Positions 6,231 to 54,288 of a stretch of DNA of 64,000 nt are shown here, piece by piece. The notes below the pieces were generated by a model. That model had not been told where the DNA came from. It was given only the letters and a program-made list of their open reading frames with translations, and did no database searches. The position numbers were made by a program, and so were the translations under genes. Every line of letters starts with the position of its first letter. The stretch's first letter is position 1. Source of the stretch: Desulfobacterales bacterium (GTDB taxonomy: Bacteria; Desulfobacterota; Desulfobacteria; Desulfobacterales; UBA2245); NCBI GenBank assembly GCA_040771865.1, contig JAXGZF010000006.1, positions 248,001-312,000 on the forward strand, read 5' to 3'.

Positions 6231-6290
6231 GAATCTTTCAATCCTGCCAAAGTGATCGCAGTTCATGAAGCCTCCTTGTAGCGCGTTTAA

Positions 6291-6433
6291 CAGGCTGTTG
6301 AAAAACCGCGTCTGAGGCCGCCATTCAGCGTTGCGCGGCTCTCGCCAATGCTCACATATGCTTAAATATGCTGCGCTTGTCGCATCGCCGCACGCCTTGT
6401 CTGACGGCCTGATTCTTGTTTTTCAACACCCTG
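6291..6433. mobile_element. 143-bp MITE, copy 1
   Basis: Terminal inverted repeats CAGGCTGTTGAAAAAC / GTTTTTCAACACCCTG with TTAA on both sides; near-identical to 47057 and 53588. Confidence 0.9.
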
Positions 6434-6777
6434 TTAAGGTTTTTATATAGGTGATAATAAATTTTAATTCCGTCATCCTTAGCGCTTTAACTTATTGCTA
6501 TGTTTATATATAATGAATGTTAACATGTTGATCAATTCTCCAGCTGGGTCGAAAAATTCACCGAAACTCCCTAAAAAAGCGGAAATTACCCAGGTTCCCT
6601 GCAGCGGGAATTCAGAATGATCACCTTTCTCGAGTCGGTATCGCTTCGAATCAGCCAGCCGATGACCCGTGTGAGACTGATTTTCGTTTACATGTTCCTG
6701 ATACCGGTTTGTTTCAGCCTGCAGCCAATTATGGCGTCACATCCTGAATCGTGAATGACCGGTTGAACCGTATCAGG

Positions 6778-7211: not shown

Positions 7212-7408
7212 ATTTGCATAGGCCTTTTCGCCATGACCTGTTCGGCGGCAAGCCGCATTCCCGGCTCCATGCGAGTCAGAACGTCAAAAGAGCCTGATTT
7301 GCAGGGGAAATACAATCAAATTCATTTGCTATGCATAATTTGGCAAGGCGCTCGTCCGGCGCAAAAAAGCCGTTCGATGAATCAGCAGCGTTATGTGAAA
7401 GGAATATT

Positions 7409-8011
7409 ATGAAAAAATTCATTTTACTTATGCCTTTATATTTTATTTTGGCCGGATGCCTCAGCTGTCAGGAATATTCTTTTGAATTTAATTACGATAC
7501 CGGCAAAGTGGAAAAAACCTATCACGGACTGCGCTCACAAAAAAGTTCTGAGGACGAAAATTATAGTATCGAAGAGGACTGGAACACATTAAAAAAAATC
7601 TCAGCGGAAGAATTTGGGAAAGACCTTGATGCAGACGTCATAAAACCTGTTGAAGCCAAACTTTTTCAGGAAGATGAGGCATTGTCCGGAAAGGAGATAC
7701 TTCAAGTACAGCTGCCCAAAGCATTCCCGTCAAAAACAGCAATACTCGAAAGACTCCATAATGAAGGAGATTCAATTGCGGATCTAAAGTTTCAGATATT
7801 AAACGGAGAGATACTTTTATTTACCCATGCCAATAAGATCAAATCCGCCAATGGAAAAATAATAAGAACCGATAAGAATAATATAGTCGTCTGGCCAGAA
7901 GAACAGATTGAATTTAGATTTACTATCTATAGCAATAATCAGGGGGGAAAGTCTCTATTGCCTTTCTATCTCGAAGAAAAGAAGTTGGAAGAAAAAAATA
8001 AAAGCACATAA
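7409..8011 (+). CDS. Hypothetical lipoprotein, AT-rich, gene-cassette-like
   Basis: MKKFILLMPLYFILAGC lipobox; AAAGGA RBS. Confidence 0.75.
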   Translation: MKKFILLMPLYFILAGCLSCQEYSFEFNYDTGKVEKTYHGLRSQKSSEDENYSIEEDWNTLKKISAEEFGKDLDADVIKPVEAKLFQEDEALSGKEILQVQLPKAFPSKTAILERLHNEGDSIADLKFQILNGEILLFTHANKIKSANGKIIRTDKNNIVVWPEEQIEFRFTIYSNNQGGKSLLPFYLEEKKLEEKNKST

Positions 8012-19603: not shown

Positions 19604-20242
19604 CTATCGAGCCTTTTTTTGCGGGAATCTGAATTCCGGCTCGACGCCGGCAATGATTCTCGTAATATTGTCCCTGTGGCGAATCCAGATGAACACTGCG
19701 GCAATCAGAGCCCATCCGGTTATGGCGAAAGACCGGTACACCATCCACGCGGCAAACGGCAAAACCGCCGAAGCGGCCAGTGAACTCACAGAAGCGCGCC
19801 GGAATACCACAACCGCGGTAATATAAACCACCGCAGCCAGGCCCAGTGCCTTTGGCGCGAGCGCCAAAAACCCACCGGCCGCCGTTGCGACACCCTTGCC
19901 GCCGAATTTGAATCCGCTGTAAACGGGAAACAGGTGACCGAAAAATGCAGCGGCGGCAATCGAAATCCCCCAGTATTGCCTGCCGATGTTTTCACTATCC
20001 GTCAGTGCGAAGAAAATCCATACCGGCAATGCCGCCTTGAGCATGTCAGCGGCCAGCGTCATGGCGCCAAGCTTTGCGCCGGCCGTCCGGGCGACATTGG
20101 CAGCTCCGATGTTTCGGCTGCCGCCCCGCCTCAAATCCACGGAACTCAGGCAACGGGTAAAGACGATTCCCCATGAGACGGATCCTATCAGATATGCCCC
20201 GAGCATCAATCCTGCGCCGACAAGAACTTCATTCACCAGCAT
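19604..20242 (-). CDS. plsY: Glycerol-3-phosphate acyltransferase
   Basis: GSRNIGAANV, GHLFP..GGKGVAT, RHRDNI. Confidence 0.94.
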   Translation of the reverse strand: MLVNEVLVGAGLMLGAYLIGSVSWGIVFTRCLSSVDLRRGGSRNIGAANVARTAGAKLGAMTLAADMLKAALPVWIFFALTDSENIGRQYWGISIAAAAFFGHLFPVYSGFKFGGKGVATAAGGFLALAPKALGLAAVVYITAVVVFRRASVSSLAASAVLPFAAWMVYRSFAITGWALIAAVFIWIRHRDNITRIIAGVEPEFRFPQKKAR

Positions 20243-20355
20243 ATCGTATTTCCTTTGAGCTTCGGGATGCATCGGCTTGACGAAAGCGCTCCCGGTTGGT
20301 ATTCAAATAAATATATGAAACGAAGTCGCTTATCAAGCACCAACAAATCATTCCC

Positions 20356-20655
20356 ATGCACCCTGTCACACAGGCGGCTGCTGTGAAGAACCTCATACGC
20401 ATTCCCATCGAAGACACGCTGGATCTTCATACATTTCAAGCCTCCGAGGTGCCGTCTCTTCTTGAGGATTATTTTTCCGAATGTGTTCGGGGAAAAATTT
20501 TTCAGGTTCGCATCATCCACGGAAAAGGAAGCGGAATGCTGAAACGGCGGGTCCATTCGGTCCTGAGTGCTTCAAAAATGGTTGAAGCGTTTTCTGATGC
20601 TCCGCCCGAGGCTGGCGGATGGGGAGCCACCCTCGTTACGCTCAAATGTCCGTAA
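20356..20655 (+). CDS. Smr/MutS2 C-terminal domain protein
   Basis: LDLH, IIHGKGSG, GGWGAT. Confidence 0.9.
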   Translation: MHPVTQAAAVKNLIRIPIEDTLDLHTFQASEVPSLLEDYFSECVRGKIFQVRIIHGKGSGMLKRRVHSVLSASKMVEAFSDAPPEAGGWGATLVTLKCP

Positions 20656-20677
20656 CCTCGAAGGAGGAAAAATCCTT

Positions 20678-21148
20678 ATGAAAATTTGGAAATACCTCTC
20701 TCCGGAAAACATTTTCCTGGATCTTGCGCTTTCCAGTAAAGACGGAATTTTGCGCTATGTGGCGGAAGCCTGCCAACATGCCGGTATTGTACAAAATTCC
20801 GGGCCCATTTATCAGGGACTGGTCTTACGGGAGAATTTGATGAGCACCGGAGTGGGCGGCGGCATCGGTCTTCCCCATACGACCTGCGACGATGTCGAAG
20901 ACGCCGCGGTTATGCTGATACGGCCGGCCAGGGCGGTCGATTTCGAAGCCATCGACAACGTTCCTGTCGATATCGTTCTGGCGCTGATCATTCCGGAAAG
21001 CAACCGCTCTCTTCATCTCAGAATTCTGGCGGGAATATCCAGACTTTGCAAAAATGTGGATTTCCTGAAAGCGGTACGGACCGAAACAGACGCAAAAAAG
21101 CTTCGAGATGCCATCGAAAATATCGAAAATCAGATGGCCTTTCATTGA
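20678..21148 (+). CDS. PTS IIA (Fru/Ntr-type) domain protein
   Basis: RENLMSTGVGGGIGLPH phospho-His motif, FEAIDNVPV; AAGGAGG RBS. Confidence 0.9.
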   Translation: MKIWKYLSPENIFLDLALSSKDGILRYVAEACQHAGIVQNSGPIYQGLVLRENLMSTGVGGGIGLPHTTCDDVEDAAVMLIRPARAVDFEAIDNVPVDIVLALIIPESNRSLHLRILAGISRLCKNVDFLKAVRTETDAKKLRDAIENIENQMAFH

Positions 21149-21166
21149 GAGGCCGAGGGTGCAACC

Positions 21167-21577
21167 GTGAATCTGCTGGTCGTGATAATCAATGAAGAAG
21201 AACTGCTCGACGAGCTGATCACCGGATGGCTGGACCTGGGCGTCACCGGCGCAACGGTGATTGAAAGCACGGACTCTCTCCAGTTCATCAGTCATCACGT
21301 TCCGATCTTTGCCGGATTCAGGGCACTGACCAGCGGCGGTATGCGGCACAACAAAACGATTTTTACCGTCATCGAAACGCCCCACATCCTCGATGAAGCC
21401 GTTGCCTTTCTGGAAGCGCTTTGCTGCAAGGCCGGGGCACCGCATCAGGGAGTCTATTTCGTTATGTCTCTGGATCGGTTCAACCGGCTGGGCCGGGAAA
21501 TCGATGACGGCGAACAACAGCGCCATGTGGAAAAAAAGATCGGCCGGCCCATAAAGGGAAAACACGAGCACACTTGA
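21167..21577 (+). CDS. PII-like (GlnB superfamily) protein
   Basis: LLVVIIN...GVTGATVIES...NKTIFTVI...G.YFV pattern of the PII-like fold. Confidence 0.7.
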   Translation: MNLLVVIINEEELLDELITGWLDLGVTGATVIESTDSLQFISHHVPIFAGFRALTSGGMRHNKTIFTVIETPHILDEAVAFLEALCCKAGAPHQGVYFVMSLDRFNRLGREIDDGEQQRHVEKKIGRPIKGKHEHT

Positions 21578-21601
21578 GCACCGTTTGCAGACGGATTGCC
21601 T

Positions 21602-22945
21602 CTACCGGGTTCCTGCCTCGTTGACACGTTCCAGGGCAATTTTGAACAGTATTGGACCAACGAGTTGATTCACAGCGATGGCCGCCAGAACCATCGTTGT
21701 CAGATAAATGCCTATTTCTGGAAACTGGCGTTGAGCCAGTTGGGCAAGGCCGATAGCAACTCCGGCCTGCGTCAGATAAGACATCCAGGCATTATGTAGA
21801 TGAGGCGAAGGATCGCGGTTGATTCTGCCCGCTGTCCAAGCGGCCCCCCAGATTCCCAGCCCTCTAATTGCCACCAAAAACAGTGCCATTGGCCAGCACG
21901 CTTTAAAGGCGTTCAAGTCCAGAGACGCGCCTGCCAGGGAAAAAAACAGCACAAAGACCGGCAGTGCCGCCCGATCAAGACTTTCCATGAATTGAAATCC
22001 GGCGTGTCCGAAATTCTGAACAACAAATCCCGCGCTCATGCAGATCAGCAGCGGCTCCAGATGCAGGGCCAGTTGAAAATTTGCCAGCATGAAACCGCCG
22101 AGCCACTGAGATATCTTGGTTACGGCGAACCCGGTCAACAGCAGAAACAAGGTCAGATCATGCCCAGCCCGTGAGATATAAAATGAAATTCCCAGGCCGA
22201 TTAATGCTCCAGTCACAAGAGAAACGAGAATTTCGCCGCACAGTGCAATCAGGGTGCTAAAATTTCCGGGTCCACCGTAAAAAAACATCTGAATCGCCGT
22301 CATGGCCAGAGTGAAGAGCACGATAATAATGACGTCGATAACGATCGTCACACCGAGAACGGTTTCGGTAAACGGTCCCGATGCCCGGCATTCGCTGATG
22401 ACGGCAATCGCCGAGGAGGGCGACCTCGCTATGGCGACCACGCCCAGAAGCACAGCCAAAGAAATTATGTGAAGCCGGCTCAGGTGAGCCGTAAACCCAA
22501 AACAGGAGCTACAGATCCAGACGGCGCCGAAAACCGATGAAAATACAATAACGGTTTGCAATATCACGTTGAGGAATATCGACCGGAAACGCTCTCCGAG
22601 AGCTTTAACATGAAGAGCGCCTCCTGCTGAAAGCGCAATAAAGCTCAACGCCAGATCATCGAACAGTTTCAGGTTTTCGGTCATTTCCCGGGTCAGGAAA
22701 CCACTGACAAATGGTCCGACCAGAATGCCGGCGACCACATAGCCGCTGATCAGCGGCATACGAAAAGTGTTGAACACTCGTCCGCTCATATAAGCGGCAA
22801 GCAACACAAAGCCCAGAGTGAAATCCGCCAAGCCCGCCCGTTGCCAGCTGGAATTCGGATCCATAGTTTTGATCCACAGGGCCGAAACAACCAGAAGGCA
22901 CATAATGACGCCGTTGAGAATAACATCTTTGACTTGTTTTCTCAT
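21602..22945 (-). CDS. Cation:proton antiporter (CPA2-like)
   Basis: About 13 TM helices; SPSSAIAVI, FFSLAGASL, QAGVAIGL, NQLVGP. Confidence 0.85.
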   Translation of the reverse strand: MRKQVKDVILNGVIMCLLVVSALWIKTMDPNSSWQRAGLADFTLGFVLLAAYMSGRVFNTFRMPLISGYVVAGILVGPFVSGFLTREMTENLKLFDDLALSFIALSAGGALHVKALGERFRSIFLNVILQTVIVFSSVFGAVWICSSCFGFTAHLSRLHIISLAVLLGVVAIARSPSSAIAVISECRASGPFTETVLGVTIVIDVIIIVLFTLAMTAIQMFFYGGPGNFSTLIALCGEILVSLVTGALIGLGISFYISRAGHDLTLFLLLTGFAVTKISQWLGGFMLANFQLALHLEPLLICMSAGFVVQNFGHAGFQFMESLDRAALPVFVLFFSLAGASLDLNAFKACWPMALFLVAIRGLGIWGAAWTAGRINRDPSPHLHNAWMSYLTQAGVAIGLAQLAQRQFPEIGIYLTTMVLAAIAVNQLVGPILFKIALERVNEAGTR

Positions 22946-24126
22946 GATCCGCCCCGCTGCAACAAAAAGCCTGCAAACAGGCCGCTCAGAGCCTCGTTGA
23001 TGACCAAGGCCATCAAGGCCACGCTGATAGCCTGGCCGGTCGCGATATCCGGAAATCCTCTTGAAAATTCAAGTAAAAAGGCGATGGGCAAACCACCCCA
23101 ATCCAGAAGTCCGAATCCGAAAAAATACGGGTGCATTCTGAACTCTGAATTGCTGCGGGTCAGCAGCCATCCGGCTGAAAACTTTCCACCGAACCGGAAC
23201 AGAAAGTATCCCACCGCTGCAAGAGGATACCAGATCAGGTCGAGGCGCCAGTTCAGGCCCAGAAACATCAGTATCAGCAGATAAACCGGTTTTTCCACCG
23301 AAACGAGCAAATTAAAGATCCGTTCTTTTTCGCGCGAAAAATTGACCAGGCAGCCACCGACAACGAAACTGATGATCAGGGATGAAAAGTTTGCCAGAGA
23401 CGCCATGCCGCTGGTCAGTATCGTCATGCCGACAACGATGAGAACCAGCTCTGCTCTTTCCGGACGCACTGTCGTAAGCAGCAGATAAAGCAGCAGAATT
23501 CCTCCACCAATTCCGGCAACCACGAAAAATTGTTCAATCGGTTGAATATTTTCCGTACCAGGATAAAAGAAAAATACCGCACCGAATGCAAGCAGCCCGA
23601 CCATTCCGTCGATTCCGGAAATATAGCGCAGGTGGATGATCATTTTCTGGCGGGGCGCTGTCCGGGAAGATGTCCACAGGGTCAGGCCTGCCTGTGCCGT
23701 ACAGGCGGCAGCGGCTGAAAGGGCGATACAGATCGCCATTTTGACGGGAAAAGATATCTGTGCAAAGAATGAAAGCGCACAATAGAGACAGCCGAACATC
23801 CAGAGCAGTGTGAACAGGCCTTCTGCAACCGCTGCATGAAGAAGCTCGACGGGAAATCGCCGAAGCTTTGCCAGTTCAAACTGAAATCCGTACAGAAGGC
23901 CGATCCATCCGAGCAGCAGCGATATCAGCGGTTCGAGGCCGTTCAAAGTGTTCTGGTCGATGATATTGAGAAATTCCGGACCGATCAAAAGGCCTAAAAC
24001 GAGAAACTCAACCCCGGTCAGATAAAACTTCCTTGCAACAAGAGGAAGCTTGAAATGCCGAAACGACAGATGATAGCCGCTGAAGGCAAGAAAAATGATC
24101 ATCAAAAGACAAAAAACGGTCTTCAT
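22942..24126 (-). CDS. Divergent cation:proton antiporter-like membrane protein
   Basis: LGLLIGP, GWIGLLYG, SGIDG, EKPVY; 4-bp overlap with the downstream antiporter. Confidence 0.7.
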   Translation of the reverse strand: MKTVFCLLMIIFLAFSGYHLSFRHFKLPLVARKFYLTGVEFLVLGLLIGPEFLNIIDQNTLNGLEPLISLLLGWIGLLYGFQFELAKLRRFPVELLHAAVAEGLFTLLWMFGCLYCALSFFAQISFPVKMAICIALSAAAACTAQAGLTLWTSSRTAPRQKMIIHLRYISGIDGMVGLLAFGAVFFFYPGTENIQPIEQFFVVAGIGGGILLLYLLLTTVRPERAELVLIVVGMTILTSGMASLANFSSLIISFVVGGCLVNFSREKERIFNLLVSVEKPVYLLILMFLGLNWRLDLIWYPLAAVGYFLFRFGGKFSAGWLLTRSNSEFRMHPYFFGFGLLDWGGLPIAFLLEFSRGFPDIATGQAISVALMALVINEALSGLFAGFLLQRGGS

Positions 24127-24386
24127 GATTAATCCGTATTCAGGCCGGATGCGCCCAAAAAAATCGTAGACCCGTCACAACGATTTTGTGCGGCGATTTT
24201 TCGCAACCGTAAAAGTGCCAAACTTCGCCTTGTGGCTGATTTTAAATTAATCAAAAAAATAAAGACAGGTTATTCGGTATTGATTTATTTCACAATAGTA
24301 TTTAAAAATAGAAAAACGTTCCCACGCCCCGGACCGGAAAATGCATCCGTCGGTCCAAGGCGACATTTATCGAAAGGAAAGGCGCC

Positions 24387-24866
24387 GTGAGTCAGAAGGA
24401 AGCACCGAAATCAATAAATGTATATGTGAACGAGGAAAACAAGGCAACGATCTGCTGCCCCTACTGTGGTTATACGGCTACCGTTTCCGCAGAAAAGTTT
24501 TCAACTGACAAGAAAATTCTTAAAACGCGATGCACGTGCGGAAAAGGTTTCCTTTGCTCCCTGGAATTCCGCAAGCATTATCGTAAAAAGGTCCGACTCG
24601 CCGGTTCGATGCGCAACCTGAGAACTCGAAAGGTTACAGATATCGTCGTTCGGGATATTTCCGGAGGGGGCATCGGCTTTACGATCTTGAGCCAGAACGC
24701 GCCCGAGGTCGGCGACGTATTGGACCTTGATTTCACGCTGGATAATGCCAACCGGTCTAAAATATCAGTTCAGGTTTCGGTAAGGACGGTAGAGGAGCGA
24801 TTTATCGGTTCCCAGTTCGTTATTCGGAATCTTCCGAGAGAACTGGGATTTTATCTGATGAAATAG
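24387..24866 (+). CDS. Zinc-ribbon + PilZ domain protein
   Basis: CPYC...CTC; RKHYR and DISGGG c-di-GMP motifs. Confidence 0.85.
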   Translation: MSQKEAPKSINVYVNEENKATICCPYCGYTATVSAEKFSTDKKILKTRCTCGKGFLCSLEFRKHYRKKVRLAGSMRNLRTRKVTDIVVRDISGGGIGFTILSQNAPEVGDVLDLDFTLDNANRSKISVQVSVRTVEERFIGSQFVIRNLPRELGFYLMK

Positions 24867-24887
24867 CGCAACTCAGCGCCGCCTCGG

Positions 24888-27800
24888 CTACCGGAGCGAG
24901 AACCGTACGCGGTTTTTCCCATTTTTTGATGTTTCCTGCTTGGCAATCGGCTCCGGCTCAAGAATGAACATTCGATTTTGTGTCACCTTTCCATTTTTCA
25001 TGATGTGGTTGCGAACCGCTTCGGCCCGCTGATACGCCAGCTGCCGAAGGTCGTTATCGGCAATCAGCGTGTGCGTAAACAGCAGCTTTTCCATCTCCTC
25101 TACAGGCAGTTTCTTGAACAGCCCCTCCGACCCTCTGGGCTTTGGAAACTGTCCGGCCTTATAGGCTTTTTCCACATAAAGCGGCCTTTCCTCCAATGAA
25201 ACGGCAATATCGCTCAGATCCAGATTCGGTTGTTTTTTGGCAACATCCTTGAGCTTTTCGGCCTTGATGCGTTCTTCAAATGCCAGCTGACGAAGCGCTT
25301 CCCGATCCTGATCCGGATCAACCTGGCCCTGAATTTCGAGTGACAGCGCGGGACGCTGGTACAAGGCATTTTCAAGATCCGCCAGCTTTTTCAAAGCCTC
25401 CGGGCCCGGCTCGCTGCTGCCGTAATCAAACTCGACATAACTCAAATCGGCTCCGCCGCCGAACATCGAGCCCAGAAGGGCAAACGGGGCAGTTACGGCC
25501 TTGGTGACCAGATTGACCAGCACGGCTATAACCACCTTGCCGATGCGGAATTTCGGGTCTTTCAGATCGCCCTGCACGGGCAGATCCAGGTCTATCACCC
25601 CGTTTCGATCCTTGAGCAGGGCGATGGCCAGCTTTACGGGAAGCGAGGTTGCGCTCGGACTCTTAACGCTGTCGCCCAGGGTGAGCTGGTCGATCCTCAC
25701 ACGGTTCTTGCCCCGAAGCTTGCCCTGATCGATCTTGTATTCCAGGGACAGATCCAGCTGGCCCTTCTGAAGCTGATAACCCAGATATTTTCCTGAATAG
25801 GGCGTAAATGGACTGAGCTGAATCTGTTTGAAGGAAAAAACAATATCGGCAAACAACTCTTCGGCCAGGGGATTGATTGTTCCGGTAATTTCCAGCGGGG
25901 CGTAGTTGCTCAGCCTTCCTTTCAGAAGCACATCGGCCCTGCGGTTTTCCTCCGACGCCAGACCGGATATTCTGCCTCCGATTTCAAGCAGGGTCGCGTC
26001 AAAGTTCGGCTCAACGTAATAGTCTGAAAATTTAATGGAACCTCCCTGCAGGGTGACCGTATCGATATGCACCGGAACAGGCGCGGCTTTTTCTTCGGTT
26101 TTCGGGGCGGCAGCTTCTTTTTCGGCCATCAGGGATTGCAGGTTGATCTTGCCGCTGGAATGCACGATCAGTCGCGAGAAGAAATCCGTCAGCGCCACAT
26201 CGCCGATGGAAACCTTCGTGGGATTATATCCGATCCGGGCTTTGGAAATGTAAAGAGAACCGCATTTAAAAAAATCCTGGGAAAATTCCCGGTCCACCGA
26301 GCTGAATTTATTCAGGAAAAGATCACCGTCATACTCGGCGGCCATATCCCTTGCCGCGTTCTGGGCAATTTTCAACCGGCCTTTGGCCCCGCACGTTCCG
26401 TCGGTGATGAGGATATTGACCTGATCGGAAAAATACGGCTGAACCGATCTTAGATCCAGGCCCTTGGCGTCAATGCCCAGATTCGCCTGAAGCGGTTTCA
26501 GACGAATCTCGCCCTTTACTCCGATCGATCCCGTACGGTTCCACAGTAAAGAAAGGTCTGCCTTGCCGGCATCCTCTACGGCGGTTCCCAGATTGCCGGC
26601 TTTCACAGCAATATCGGAAAGGTTGAGTTTAACCGGGTCATCGGGAGCCAGGTCTTCGAATTCAACTGACCAGCCGGAAAGATCCGCCTGATTCAGAAGA
26701 ACTTTCCAGGAAGGCGATTCCGTGGCTGCGGCTTTTTCGGGAATTGCCTTTTGGTCGGAGACAACCAGCCGCTGCCAGTTGATCGCGCCATCGGCGTTCC
26801 GTTGAAAGAATGCATTACCCCCGCGGGAAGCCACCATGCCCAGGACAACAGATCCATGCGTTGCATCAATTTGCGTGTCGCTTACGGAAAATTCGTCAAT
26901 CTTCAAAACCGTTCGTTTCTGCACCCTATCCTGAATGCTGAGCCCCTTGAGATCCAGTCCGACCCCGTCTAACGCCAGGGTTTCGGATGCGGATTCAAAC
27001 CTAAATCCTGCATGCGCGCCCGCCGTGCCGCCCGTGATCTCAAACCCCAGGCGGTCCTGGTAATACGGTGCATACCGTTTCAATACGAAATTCGCGAGAT
27101 CGGCGGCCCCTTGAGCGCTCAGCGGATCCAGGCAAAAACGTCCGGCCGATTCAACCGTTTCATTGGCATCAGTACGGGCCGAAAAAGCATACTCCGCATT
27201 CCGGTCTTTGCGGGTGCTGAAATTCTTAACCGAAACCTTCATGTCTTCCAGGCGCGTTTGAAAGGGCTCACTTGCGGCCGAATCGGAAAACGCAACGACC
27301 GCTCCGGAAATGCTGAAGTCATCCAGATCGACAACGGGCTCTGCGGTTTTCGAGTGATCCTTTTCAGATGCGGTAGTCTGCGCTTTTTCTCCGGCCAGTG
27401 AGGCAAGCTCCAGGTTTCCGGACTCATTCCGCCGGATATGAATCTCCGGACGATTGATTCGAAAATAATCAATATGATACGGCCCCTTAAGAAGATCGGA
27501 TTGATTCAGTTTTGCCTCCAGTTCCGGCACATAGAACAGGGGCTGGTTTTCAGAAAGCGTCACGCGCGCTTCGGACACCTCCAGCCATCCGGTGAGCGCG
27601 GTCAGAAAAAGCTGATCGTTCTGCCGGCTGAAATCCAGCGCAATCTTTGCGCTGGAAAAAGCGGATGGCACCTTCAGATTTTTGGGCAGGGCGACATACG
27701 GCAGACAGCGCAGCAGATCGAGTTTGCGAATATCGGCATAAATCCGGGTCCTGAGCGAAGGGTCAAAGAAAAGGCCCTGTGCGTTGAGCTTGATCGGACT

Positions 27801-46566: not shown

Positions 46567-47056
46567 TTCATCCTCCTCGAATTTTAATGTTTAATATGTC
46601 TCTCCCCAAGAGAGCTTGTTTGGATATTCGATCGAACAAAAGCACCAGCATAAATATAACATTATGAAAATAAACAAAAAAAGTAATAAAAAATTGTTTA
46701 TATAATGAACGTTGTTCAGACTAAATAAAACATTTATGTTTGTCAAGGGCAATGTTGTGCATGGGGTATGATCTGGAAAGAATTTCCTGGTAATAAGGTC
46801 AACAACCTTATTTCCGGAATGGCCGCTCTTCATAAAGCGCTTCGGAAATTCTTGCAGGAGTTTTTGTATCCGGTGGATCTCTTACGTTGCGATTTGAAAC
46901 GGTTGCGGAATTATGTTCCGCAATCAGGGATGGTGAATTTTCAGGATTGATTGAATAGGCTCGATTCACTGGGTTGATCGTTGCCGAAGCGTGAGGCGTT
47001 GTTCGCAAAAACCCGATTCTGAGAAAGAGAAGACCGGCCGGTGCGAGCCGGTTTCT

Positions 47057-47199
47057 CAGGCAGTTGAAAAACTGTGTCTGAGGCCGCCATTCCGCGTTGC
47101 GCGGCTCTCGCCAATGCTCATATATGCTTGAATATGCTGCGCTTGTTGTATCGCCGCGCGCCTTATCTGACGGCCTAATTCTTGTTTTTCAACACCCTG
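47057..47199. mobile_element. 143-bp MITE, copy 2 (more diverged)
   Basis: CAGGCAGTTGAAAAAC...GTTTTTCAACACCCTG; abuts the ahbA stop codon. Confidence 0.9.
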
Positions 47200-47655
47200 T
47201 TATAAATCGAACTGGGCCCGTATTTTAAAGATCCGGGTGGCTGGCAGATTGAGGATTTTTTCGACTCCGGTTTCCCGGGAGATGGCGGCAAGGCTGGATT
47301 CGATCTCCTCCATCGAAGGCGCGATAAAGGTGAACCACACGTTGAAGTTTCCCTGGCGGACGTAATTGTGGGTCACGCCGGCATACCGATTGACGCATCG
47401 GGCGAATGCGTCGATGCCGTCTTCCGGCACTTCGGCGGCGCACAGGGTGCTGACAAAACCGAGCCTGGCAGGCGCAAGATTTGCCCCGATACGCCGAATG
47501 ATGCCATCCTGTTTCAGCCGTGTCACCCGTTCGAGAACCTCTTTTTCGCTGAGGCCCAGCTCTGTTGCCAATGCAAGATAGGGCCTGGATTCCATCGGAA
47601 AGTCCGACTGAATTCGGTTGAGTATTTTTTTATCTGCATCGTTCAACCGGGACAT
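47200..47655 (-). CDS. ahbA: Siroheme decarboxylase alpha subunit (Lrp/AsnC-like)
   Basis: IQSDFP..RPY, IIRRIG, STLCAA, GVTHNY.R, NVWFT. Confidence 0.88.
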   Translation of the reverse strand: MSRLNDADKKILNRIQSDFPMESRPYLALATELGLSEKEVLERVTRLKQDGIIRRIGANLAPARLGFVSTLCAAEVPEDGIDAFARCVNRYAGVTHNYVRQGNFNVWFTFIAPSMEEIESSLAAISRETGVEKILNLPATRIFKIRAQFDL

Positions 47656-53322: not shown

Positions 53323-53587
53323 TATGCAGTTTCATCTCCTGGAGAACGGATTGTCGAATATCTTGCCTTAGCATAAATTCAGGAGAACTGAAATTTGAAA
53401 AGGGCATTTTATTTTTCAAAATGCATGGCGAAGCGTCGACGGACAGCTACTTTGAAAAACGGAATGTTGTCCTTTGATTTTGATGTGTTGCGAGCCGGAG
53501 CCTTTCCGGGTTTGCGATCGCCTGCGCGATAAATTCGCTTGAGGTGATTCGCCGATCATTTTGAGAATACGGCCGCAGGATTCTTAA

Positions 53588-53730
53588 CAGGCTGTTGAAA
53601 AACCGCGCCTGAAACCGCCATTCAGCGTTGCGCGGCTCTCGCCAATGCTCACATATGCTTGAATATGCTGCGCTTGTCGCATCGCCGCGCGCCTTGCCTG
53701 ACGGCCTGATTCTTGTTTTTCAACACCCTG
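53588..53730. mobile_element. 143-bp MITE, copy 3
   Basis: Same terminal inverted repeats; TTAA on both sides. Confidence 0.9.
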
Positions 53731-54288
53731 TTAAATAAGCGGAAGGCTTCAGGTGCGGCCATTGACGCTTCGGTAACTTCGGGGCTTTCGAGCAACGGAT
53801 CCCTTACGGATTAAAAAATTGACATAATATTAAGTTAATGATTGAAATTCAGGTATTTTTATAATAAATATTCCCAGAACAGGCTGCCGGCCGCCAGATG
53901 GTTGAGCTGAGTGAAGTGGTCTTTGACAAGTAAAATATTCCAAAAACGTTTTGAAATCCGGTTGTTGTCGTTATTCGATACTTTTATGCACATTATCTAG
54001 TGTATAGTATTATAAGCAAACCACTATATAATGGGGAGTTTAAAATTCAGAATGAATCACTATAAAAACTCTTGACTTGATTAAATATTAGCCAATATAC
54101 ATTAAAAAGCCTTTTTACGGACATAAAACGCAATCATTTTTTCGCACATAAGCGGGGAGGGTAAAAGATTACCGTTTGAAGTTATGAGCTATCGATCAGG
54201 CGGTTCCTTAAAATGATAAATTTTACGGAGCTTTGAATTCAGCGCAACTCAAAATAGCTAACGTTTAACCCTTGGCAAAGAGGCAATT

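Follow-up and report, generated by a model that had tools for sequence, protein, structure and literature searches.

What would bring together an EIIA protein of the phosphotransferase system (PTS), a small PII-like protein and two membrane proteins of the cation/proton antiporter (CPA) fold? This question is raised by four neighboring genes at positions 20678-24126 of a 64,000-nucleotide stretch of DNA, referred to below as the window, from a Desulfobacterales bacterium (GenBank assembly GCA_040771865.1, contig JAXGZF010000006.1, positions 248,001 to 312,000 of the forward strand). We propose, with a probability that we place at roughly 55%, that the four genes encode a single regulated ion/proton exchanger, in which EIIA acts through the PII-like protein as an adaptor on the paired CPA proteins, here called CPA_A and CPA_B. 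The evidence consists of gene anatomy, protein folds, conservation of linkage, gene fusions and residue patterns. An initial annotation, made from the sequence of the window, had described the same four genes at the same coordinates (Table 1), and its account of the proteins has largely stood; its view of how they are controlled has changed.

Evidence that the four genes belong together comes from their neighborhoods in other genomes. Because kin are not independent of one another, we give counts of linkage and attach no statistics to them. The close set comprises 71 loci with record titles of Desulfobacterales, Syntrophales or similar; going by these titles, the cultured Desulfatibacillum alkenivorans DSM 16219 and Desulfonema magnum carry the module. 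The EIIA gene lies directly 5' of the PII-like gene in 66 of the 68 close loci with enough upstream DNA, the exceptions being L029, where CPA_A, CPA_B and the PII-like gene follow one another on one strand, and L036, which has MscL upstream. Among the 57 close loci with at least 2.9 kb of downstream DNA, both CPA genes adjoin the pair in 37 and one only in five (CPA_B in L064 and L085; CPA_A in L022, L066 and L086); the rest are weighed below. The order within the CPA pair is fixed, CPA_A preceding CPA_B in 53 of 53 loci, and the two frames overlap by 1 or 4 nt in 32 of these when the most upstream start codon is assumed. In the window the overlap is ATGA, and the CPA pair is translationally coupled, as initially described.

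Co-occurrence extends well beyond these close loci. In a survey of 41 genomes of the order, one per family apart from the window's own, a strong PII-like match was obtained in nine, and all nine also hold CPA_A and CPA_B, which are on other contigs in G010 and G024. The other 32 genomes gave matches in three only: G039, where the pair is cut by a contig start, G022, with a partial CPA_A, and G029, with a CPA_B-like gene that is 35% identical. Across the phylum, the wider PII-like family is found in 22 of 301 genomes; the CPA pair is present in 15 of the 20 phylum loci fetched, and all four genes are on one strand in 10. Beyond the phylum, a relative is encoded by 339 of 366 candidate stretches; of the 80 best loci, 37 have an adjacent EIIA and 12 contain the complete set of four. 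The titles of the four-gene loci include Gemmatimonadales, Thermoanaerobaculales, Kofleriaceae, Methylomirabilota, Aminicenantes, Sulfomarinibacteraceae and metagenome-assembled genomes labelled Clostridia/Eubacteriales, with four-gene operons on one strand in Gemmatimonadales, Aminicenantes, Kofleriaceae and Methylomirabilota. At two loci, the EIIA/PII-like pair precedes a single canonical 400-residue PF00999 gene instead. Whether the four genes would be found together in other genomes had been set as a test of the original idea, and they are, across the order, the phylum and distant lineages. We dismiss a chance arrangement because the gene set recurs widely and because the linkage survives changes of gene order, strand, flanks and phylum. 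These observations support the view that the four genes are a conserved and functionally linked set.

Some of the surveyed loci carry additional genes. In L036 (Desulfoferrobacter suflitae), the gene immediately 5' of the PII-like gene is mscL (7396-7824) instead of EIIA. The KefB-type gene of L062 carries TrkA_N/TrkA_C, and the locus with a ClC channel as neighbor also has another EIIA protein. One family of the phylum has the PII-like gene, with no EIIA, immediately 5' of ATP-synthase genes (L121 and L123; L122 and L128 by gene spacing), which in L123 are atpI, then atpB and atpE, and the CPA pair follows in L122, L123 and L128. Loci titled Calditrichota (L148, L149, L178, L182 and L213) have a second EIIA gene divergently upstream of the EIIA/PII-like pair, and a Ser/Thr protein kinase gene comes after the pair in L149 and, with a single EIIA, in L198. 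In Gemmatimonadaceae, DUF948 (L150, L165) and a gene for a Zn-dependent phospholipase-C-like protein (L150, L158, L181) come after the PII-like gene.

Gene fusions connect two of the partners physically. Protein P0243 contains an EIIA_2 domain (residues 6-152) followed by a PII-like domain (171-298), and P0266 similarly joins EIIA_2 (12-152) to P-II (181-278). A search for longer fused forms returned P0243 only, and P0266 used as a query for related loci found no relative. The initial annotation had looked to CPA-EIIA fusions for support; neither a CPA-EIIA nor a CPA-PII fusion was seen among the 150 best representatives, 42 of which were scanned with Pfam, and the fusions that do occur join EIIA to the PII-like protein instead.

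The assignment of the 136-residue protein to the PII fold, proposed from its sequence in the initial annotation, is now supported by a structural model. Its AlphaFold2 model has a mean pLDDT of 75.5 and predicts two beta-alpha-beta units separated by a long loop (strand 2-8, helix 11-24, strand 30-33, loop 34-62, strand 63-69, helix 72-89, strand 95-101), with a confident core and pLDDT values of 53-59 in the loop. The best matches of this model to PDB entries by Foldseek are chains of PII, GlnK, GlnZ and SbtB (probability 1.00, E about 1e-4, TM score on the target 0.76-0.81, root-mean-square deviation 2.1-2.7). Family comparisons are consistent with this fold. The close PII-like family aligns with GlnB at a probability of only 2.8% by hhalign; it matches the wider PII-like family of 65 sequences at 100% (E 2.2e-42), and that wider family in turn matches the genome's own GlnB at 90.8% (E 1.2e-6). 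A profile search of 1.84 billion representatives gave 571 relatives at E ≤0.001, and many distant relatives match Pfam P-II (PF00543), several of them above the cut-off or above 25 bits.

The part of the PII-like protein that is best conserved is its T-loop, an insertion of 29 residues (34-62) between strands 2 and 3 with the motif PIFAGFR. Within this motif P46, F48, A49 and G50 are invariant, and I47, F51 and R52 nearly so. At least 90% of the close family have His61, in the T-loop region, and the wider family does not conserve it. The C-terminal helix is basic. In the alignment, the segment PHQGVYF falls on GDGKIF of GlnB, which we take to be the glycine-rich B-loop, and on this alignment reading the glycine-rich B-loop is not kept in the window protein.

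The EIIA protein matches almost the whole of the PF00359 profile (positions 2-143 of 144), with E 2.4e-29 and 102.6 bits, the cut-off being 27. It falls below the cut-off of the PtsN equivalog TIGR01419 (68 bits against 138.7), and the cut-off of the FruA model is also not reached. The phospho-histidine reported initially is intact: His67 lies within GVGGGIGLPH, a G-x-G-x-x-x-P-H loop, and is conserved in 59 of 61 homologues (47 of 49 close ones, 12 of 12 distant ones). We presume that His67 is the phospho-acceptor, by carry-over from EIIA(Ntr) and EIIA(Mtl). EIIA is an extra paralogue, separate from the PtsN-like gene that this genome has next to rpoN; the two are 33% identical, and this second EIIA lies on contig C3 in an rpoN-hpf-EIIA-rapZ-EIIA(Man) cluster and is likewise below the TIGR01419 cut-off, at 111 bits. 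The EIIA of the locus is also an orphan, as had been noted, for its upstream neighbors encode the unrelated Smr, PlsY and IspH/LytB, and no EIIC of family PF02378 was found in the genome, other EIIC families not having been searched for. A third EIIA domain (PTS_EIIA_2, with the PH motif) forms the N-terminus of a 1183-residue type-II P-type cation ATPase, encoded on contig C8 of the same genome at about 164822-168373 (L095:1453-5004).

Of the two membrane proteins, CPA_B is the more readily recognized. It matches PF00999 with E 1.5e-17 and 64 bits (cut-off 26.2), over profile positions 7-368 of 375. CPA_A has no Pfam or NCBIfam match, CPA_B has no NCBIfam match, and a pairwise BLASTP comparison of the two gives E 0.028. 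Aligned as families by hhalign, they match at 98.6% probability (E 1.2e-15) over 374 columns with 18% identity, and PF00999 is present in 12 of 120 CPA_A homologues listed. The profile comparison confirms, at the level of sequence, that CPA_A is a full-length distant paralogue of CPA_B with a predicted CPA fold, in keeping with the original description of two mutually divergent CPA-fold proteins. That description also held that KTN/RCK domains are lacking. Consistent with this, TrkA_N, TrkA_C and CorC gave no match in either protein, PF00999 was the only domain found, and the longest stretches of low hydropathy span 40-42 residues; neither protein has a cytoplasmic domain. Three other, canonical PF00999 genes of the same genome have longer frames, of 685, 664 and 508 residues.

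Residue patterns distinguish the two subunits. The ion-binding Asp, located on the helix that follows the unwound one, belongs to an ND motif in CPA1 and a DD motif in CPA2 exchangers. The CPA_B profile matches MjNhaP1 (PDB 4czb) in the first half of the protein, with E 0.0017, and this alignment places Asp204 of CPA_B on Asp161 of the ND motif and Arg174-Ser175-Pro176 on Thr-Asp-Pro, so that Arg174 stands opposite Thr131 at the unwound helix. Asp204 is present in all 52 CPA_B sequences compared (37 of 37 close and 15 of 15 distant). The corresponding Asp173 of CPA_A is present in the window and shared by 33 of the 37 close sequences; in the 14 distant ones the key position has Asp in six, Asn-Asp in five and is missing in three. 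Altogether 12 of 51 CPA_A sequences lack Asp at the aligned column, and three of these also lack a neighboring Asp. In both window proteins the residue preceding the key Asp is Ile, neither Asn nor Asp. Mean column identity is 64% in CPA_B and 55% in CPA_A.

Based on these observations, we propose the following mechanism. CPA_A and CPA_B, which are translated in a fixed order from a single coupled message, would most likely assemble as a mixed dimer, in which CPA_B is the constrained, transporting subunit and CPA_A a less constrained partner whose ion-binding Asp is gone in some lineages. The soluble EIIA/PII-like pair would substitute for the RCK or CorC domains that control other CPA exchangers. 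EIIA, as a PtsN paralogue, would be phosphorylated on His67 by EI/NPr-type proteins and thereby report the supply of phosphoenolpyruvate and the carbon/nitrogen state; it would bind the PII-like protein, which may contact the exchanger through its long invariant T-loop and so open or close it. The transported ion would be, by the default for PF00999, K+ or Na+ against H+. In this scheme we infer every contact between the proteins, the sign of the control, which ligand the PII-like protein takes and which ion is moved. The initial annotation had instead envisaged dual control by PTS phosphorylation and by a PII-like nucleotide sensor. A relay from EIIA through the PII-like protein to the transporter is favored over two independent inputs because EIIA and the PII-like protein are a near-invariant pair and also a fused one. 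The EIIA domain that the same genome fuses to a P-type cation ATPase lends the proposal further support.

Several observations weigh against this proposal. The EIIA/PII-like pair and the CPA pair converge in the window and therefore form separate transcripts there, and a PII trimer acting on a CPA dimer would present a symmetry mismatch. The PII-like protein itself has no Pfam match, P-II (PF00543) included, and no NCBIfam match; phmmer found no match to it in PDB, and a PDB profile search gave one unrelated match at E 1.2. Fusion P0243 is a single sequence on a single contig and could be an artefact of gene calling or sequencing. Finally, the general PTS proteins HPr and EI were not found in the window's own assembly, although HPr is present in 38 of 41 relatives and EI is above cut-off in 36 of 41. 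A real loss of both was considered and rejected: the flank of ptsI-ptsH in a sister genome aligns to bases 3-1976 of contig C3, the start of that contig, so the genes are expected just beyond the contig end and their absence is most simply an assembly gap, into which we think they probably fall.

The linkage data also admit a different role for the soluble pair. EIIA and the PII-like protein could be a general signaling pair that, like PtsN or GlnB, serves several or different targets, with the CPA pair as one client or merely co-regulated. Counting against our proposal or in favor of this one, 15 of the 57 close loci have no CPA gene adjoining the pair, and such loci have varied neighbors (TrkH, a KefB-type CPA, ClC, NfeD, histidine kinases); the pair sits beside housekeeping genes in Calditrichota and KSB1 loci; the PII-like gene lacks an adjacent EIIA in Gemmatimonadaceae (L150, L158, L165, L181); and MscL and atp genes occur as neighbors elsewhere. 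The best 80 wider loci point the same way, since EIIA is adjacent far more often than all four genes are present, as does a PII-like domain fused to PilZ (P0322). We nevertheless consider a general pair unlikely, because all nine surveyed genomes of the order with the PII-like gene hold both CPA genes, four-gene operons on one strand recur in distant lineages, and in L189 and L211 the pair is followed by a second type of CPA, unrelated to the first. That the neighborhood has no functional meaning at all and is inherited synteny of unrelated genes seems extremely improbable; the convergent orientation in the window and the unrelated housekeeping genes that flank it would be compatible with such an accident, but the association survives changed order, strand and flanks in several phyla and includes fusions.

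Alternatives also concern the membrane proteins. CPA_A and CPA_B might form separate homodimers, suited to different ions or pH ranges, or CPA_A might be a non-transporting chaperone or scaffold. Solved CPA exchangers are homodimeric, YcgO being an example (10.64898/2026.08.14.744764). CPA_B is unlinked from CPA_A in G015, which speaks against a fixed partnership, as do the five loci with a single adjacent CPA gene and the canonical ND or DD motifs of some CPA_A clades. Such an absence of mixed dimers is somewhat unlikely in our judgment, given the invariant gene order and frequent overlap, the co-inheritance of two families that have diverged to 18% identity, and the loss of Asp in some CPA_A sequences while CPA_B always keeps it, which is the pattern expected of an asymmetric, obligate pair. 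It is also conceivable that the pair is no cation/proton antiporter and instead moves an anion, ammonium or an organic ion, or acts as a sensor or in the manner of a channel. Characterized CPA members are remote from both proteins, as their scores show (64 bits for CPA_B, no match for CPA_A, no NCBIfam match, a best PDB profile match of E 0.0017), and CPA_B has Arg-Ser-Pro in place of Thr-Asp-Pro and Ile, or Met, rather than Asn or Asp before the key Asp. Arg174 stands at the unwound helix, and because of it the substrate of CPA_B may not be a simple cation, which is a further point against our proposal. We regard another kind of solute as quite unlikely, since the PF00999 match covers nearly the whole profile, the key Asp of CPA_B is invariant, and the known targets of EIIA(Ntr) are K+ transport proteins (PMC13104625).

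The proposal of a regulated exchanger can be taken further in two ways. It is possible, and we suggest only tentatively, that a widespread relay joins two classic carbon/nitrogen-status systems of bacteria at one membrane target: the PTS(Ntr) branch would end in a dedicated EIIA, a PII-fold protein equally dedicated to this role would read whether EIIA is phosphorylated, and the T-loop of that protein would gate a CPA heterodimer whose asymmetry is obligate, one subunit being catalytic and the other degenerate. In a bolder form, phosphorylated EIIA would hand its phosphoryl group to the T-loop region of the PII-like protein, with His61 as the candidate acceptor.

The layout of the locus is given in Table 1, in which the convergent gap of 24 bp reported initially is found between the two stop codons. 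The EIIA start is an internal ATG within a listed open reading frame of 20567-21148; we place it at 20678 because this fits the 156-residue homologues and their MKI...IFLD N-terminus.

Table 1. Positions in the window of the four genes and of the junctions between them (nt, nucleotides; aa, amino acids).
Feature	Position	Strand	Description
EIIA	20678-21148	+	156 aa; PF00359 (PTS_EIIA_2)
PII-like gene	21167-21577	+	136 aa; GTG start, 18 nt past EIIA stop
Spacer	21578-21601		24 bp between convergent stops of PII-like gene and CPA_B; read directly
CPA_B	21602-22945	-	447 aa; PF00999
CPA_A	22942-24126	-	394 aa; predicted divergent CPA_B paralogue
CPA_A stop/CPA_B start overlap	22942-22945	-	ATGA; read directly

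The genome that carries the locus (2.98 Mb in 13 contigs, 98.3% complete) has near-identical DNA in anaerobic-digester and wastewater metagenomes. Metatranscriptome contigs from one study cover 20614-20846, 23134-23351, 23994-24222 and 24328-24500. Such libraries can contain DNA, the contigs give neither strand nor level, and the parts left uncovered are uninformative, so that this coverage is at most a weak hint of transcription. An Rfam scan of 20000-24900 gave zero matches at E ≤1, and there is thus no riboswitch in this interval. A scan for promoters and terminators returned nothing convincing at the gene ends and no convincing terminator in the 24-bp spacer. The sequence TGGCAC...TTGC upstream of CPA_A was considered as a sigma-54 promoter and rejected, its spacing being 8 nt and not 5 (judged by eye against the consensus).

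Beyond CPA_A, and divergent from it, a gene at 24387-24866 (+) encodes a PilZ-domain protein with a Cys-rich N-terminus and is conserved only within the same genus. At one locus (L045), a gene for a cyclic-nucleotide-binding (cNMP-binding) PilZ protein lies 5' of EIIA. Together with the PII-like-PilZ fusion, this last gene hints at a cyclic-di-GMP input. Elsewhere in the window, a dispersed repeat of ~150 bp occurs at about 6285-6438, 47051-47202 and 53584-53734, in copies that are 85-96% alike; comparison of a sister-genome stretch with the whole genome places it at dozens more sites on contigs C3-C11. It may be an element of the miniature inverted-repeat transposable (MITE) or repetitive extragenic palindromic (REP) kind.

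CPA exchangers set cytoplasmic pH, K+ and Na+, and to our knowledge the regulation of those without RCK domains is largely uncharacterized. If our proposal is correct, the EIIA/PII-like module would be a general means by which bacteria of several phyla couple the homeostasis of ions and pH to their metabolism, and it would be the first example in which a PTS protein exerts its effect by way of a PII-fold protein. The CPA pair would be the first natural asymmetric CPA dimer and could help to show how the dimer interface works together with the two elevator domains. All parts of the module are small and expressible, which makes the idea directly testable. In agreement with the initial annotation, which knew of no characterized system of such composition, our literature searches found no paper describing an EIIA, PII-like and CPA system. 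The module thus appears to combine known kinds of control, PtsN-regulated CPA exchange and the gating of transporters by PII-like proteins, in a composition for which we found no description.

How the module relates to known systems is clearest when its parts are taken in turn. Among solved structures, MjNhaP1 is the nearest to CPA_B by sequence profile. The two would share the CPA fold, and Asp204 lines up with the ND-motif Asp, as does Pro176 with the Pro of Thr-Asp-Pro; they differ in that Ile-Asp and Arg-Ser-Pro stand in CPA_B where MjNhaP1 has Asn-Asp and Thr-Asp-Pro, and the match is a distant one. CPA2 exchangers with a separate or fused cytoplasmic regulator are exemplified by KefC-KefF, KhtU-KhtT and CpaA, which is regulated by c-di-AMP. 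In these systems a flavodoxin-like or RCK/KTN regulator acts on one CPA, whereas the window would couple an EIIA and a PII-fold protein to a pair of CPA paralogues, and the C-terminal TrkA_N/TrkA_C domains of KefB/KefC-type exchangers are absent from both window proteins.

For the PII-like protein, the relevant comparisons are SbtB-SbtA and GlnK-AmtB. GlnK plugs AmtB. As in both systems, a small protein of predicted PII fold is encoded beside a transporter, and the T-loop would be the contact element; structures of SbtB-SbtA are represented by titles cited in PMC10710835. The window differs in that the partner is a CPA-fold pair, not SbtA or Amt, that the T-loop of about 29 residues has its own invariant PIFAGFR, that an EIIA is coupled and sometimes fused to the protein, and that the glycine-rich B-loop appears not to be kept.

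For EIIA, proteins of the EIIA(Ntr) type regulate K+ homeostasis through direct binding to TrkA and KdpD (PMC13104625). Of these, TrkA is a KTN protein and KdpD a histidine kinase; no PII-fold intermediary is known for either, and a 2026 review of the nitrogen-related PTS contains no occurrence of "PII". The closest precedent is found in E. coli, where, as described in PMC11808508 and bioRxiv 10.64898/2026.08.14.744764, PtsN in its unphosphorylated form binds to the CorC domain of YcgO (CvrA), a CPA1 K+/H+ antiporter, and inhibits antiport. In both cases an EIIA of the PF00359 type would control a CPA-fold exchanger, as we propose here for the window; in YcgO, according to the same two papers, the contact depends on the phosphorylation state of the His and is made through a small cytoplasmic module, not through the membrane domain. 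In YcgO a single protein, which carries fused RCK and CorC domains, forms a homodimer, whereas the window encodes two paralogous CPA proteins without a cytoplasmic domain and a separate PII-fold protein where CorC would be, and its EIIA is an extra paralogue rather than the rpoN-linked PtsN. On our best reading, the module in the window may be understood as a variant of PtsN-YcgO in which a detachable PII-fold protein has taken the place of CorC.

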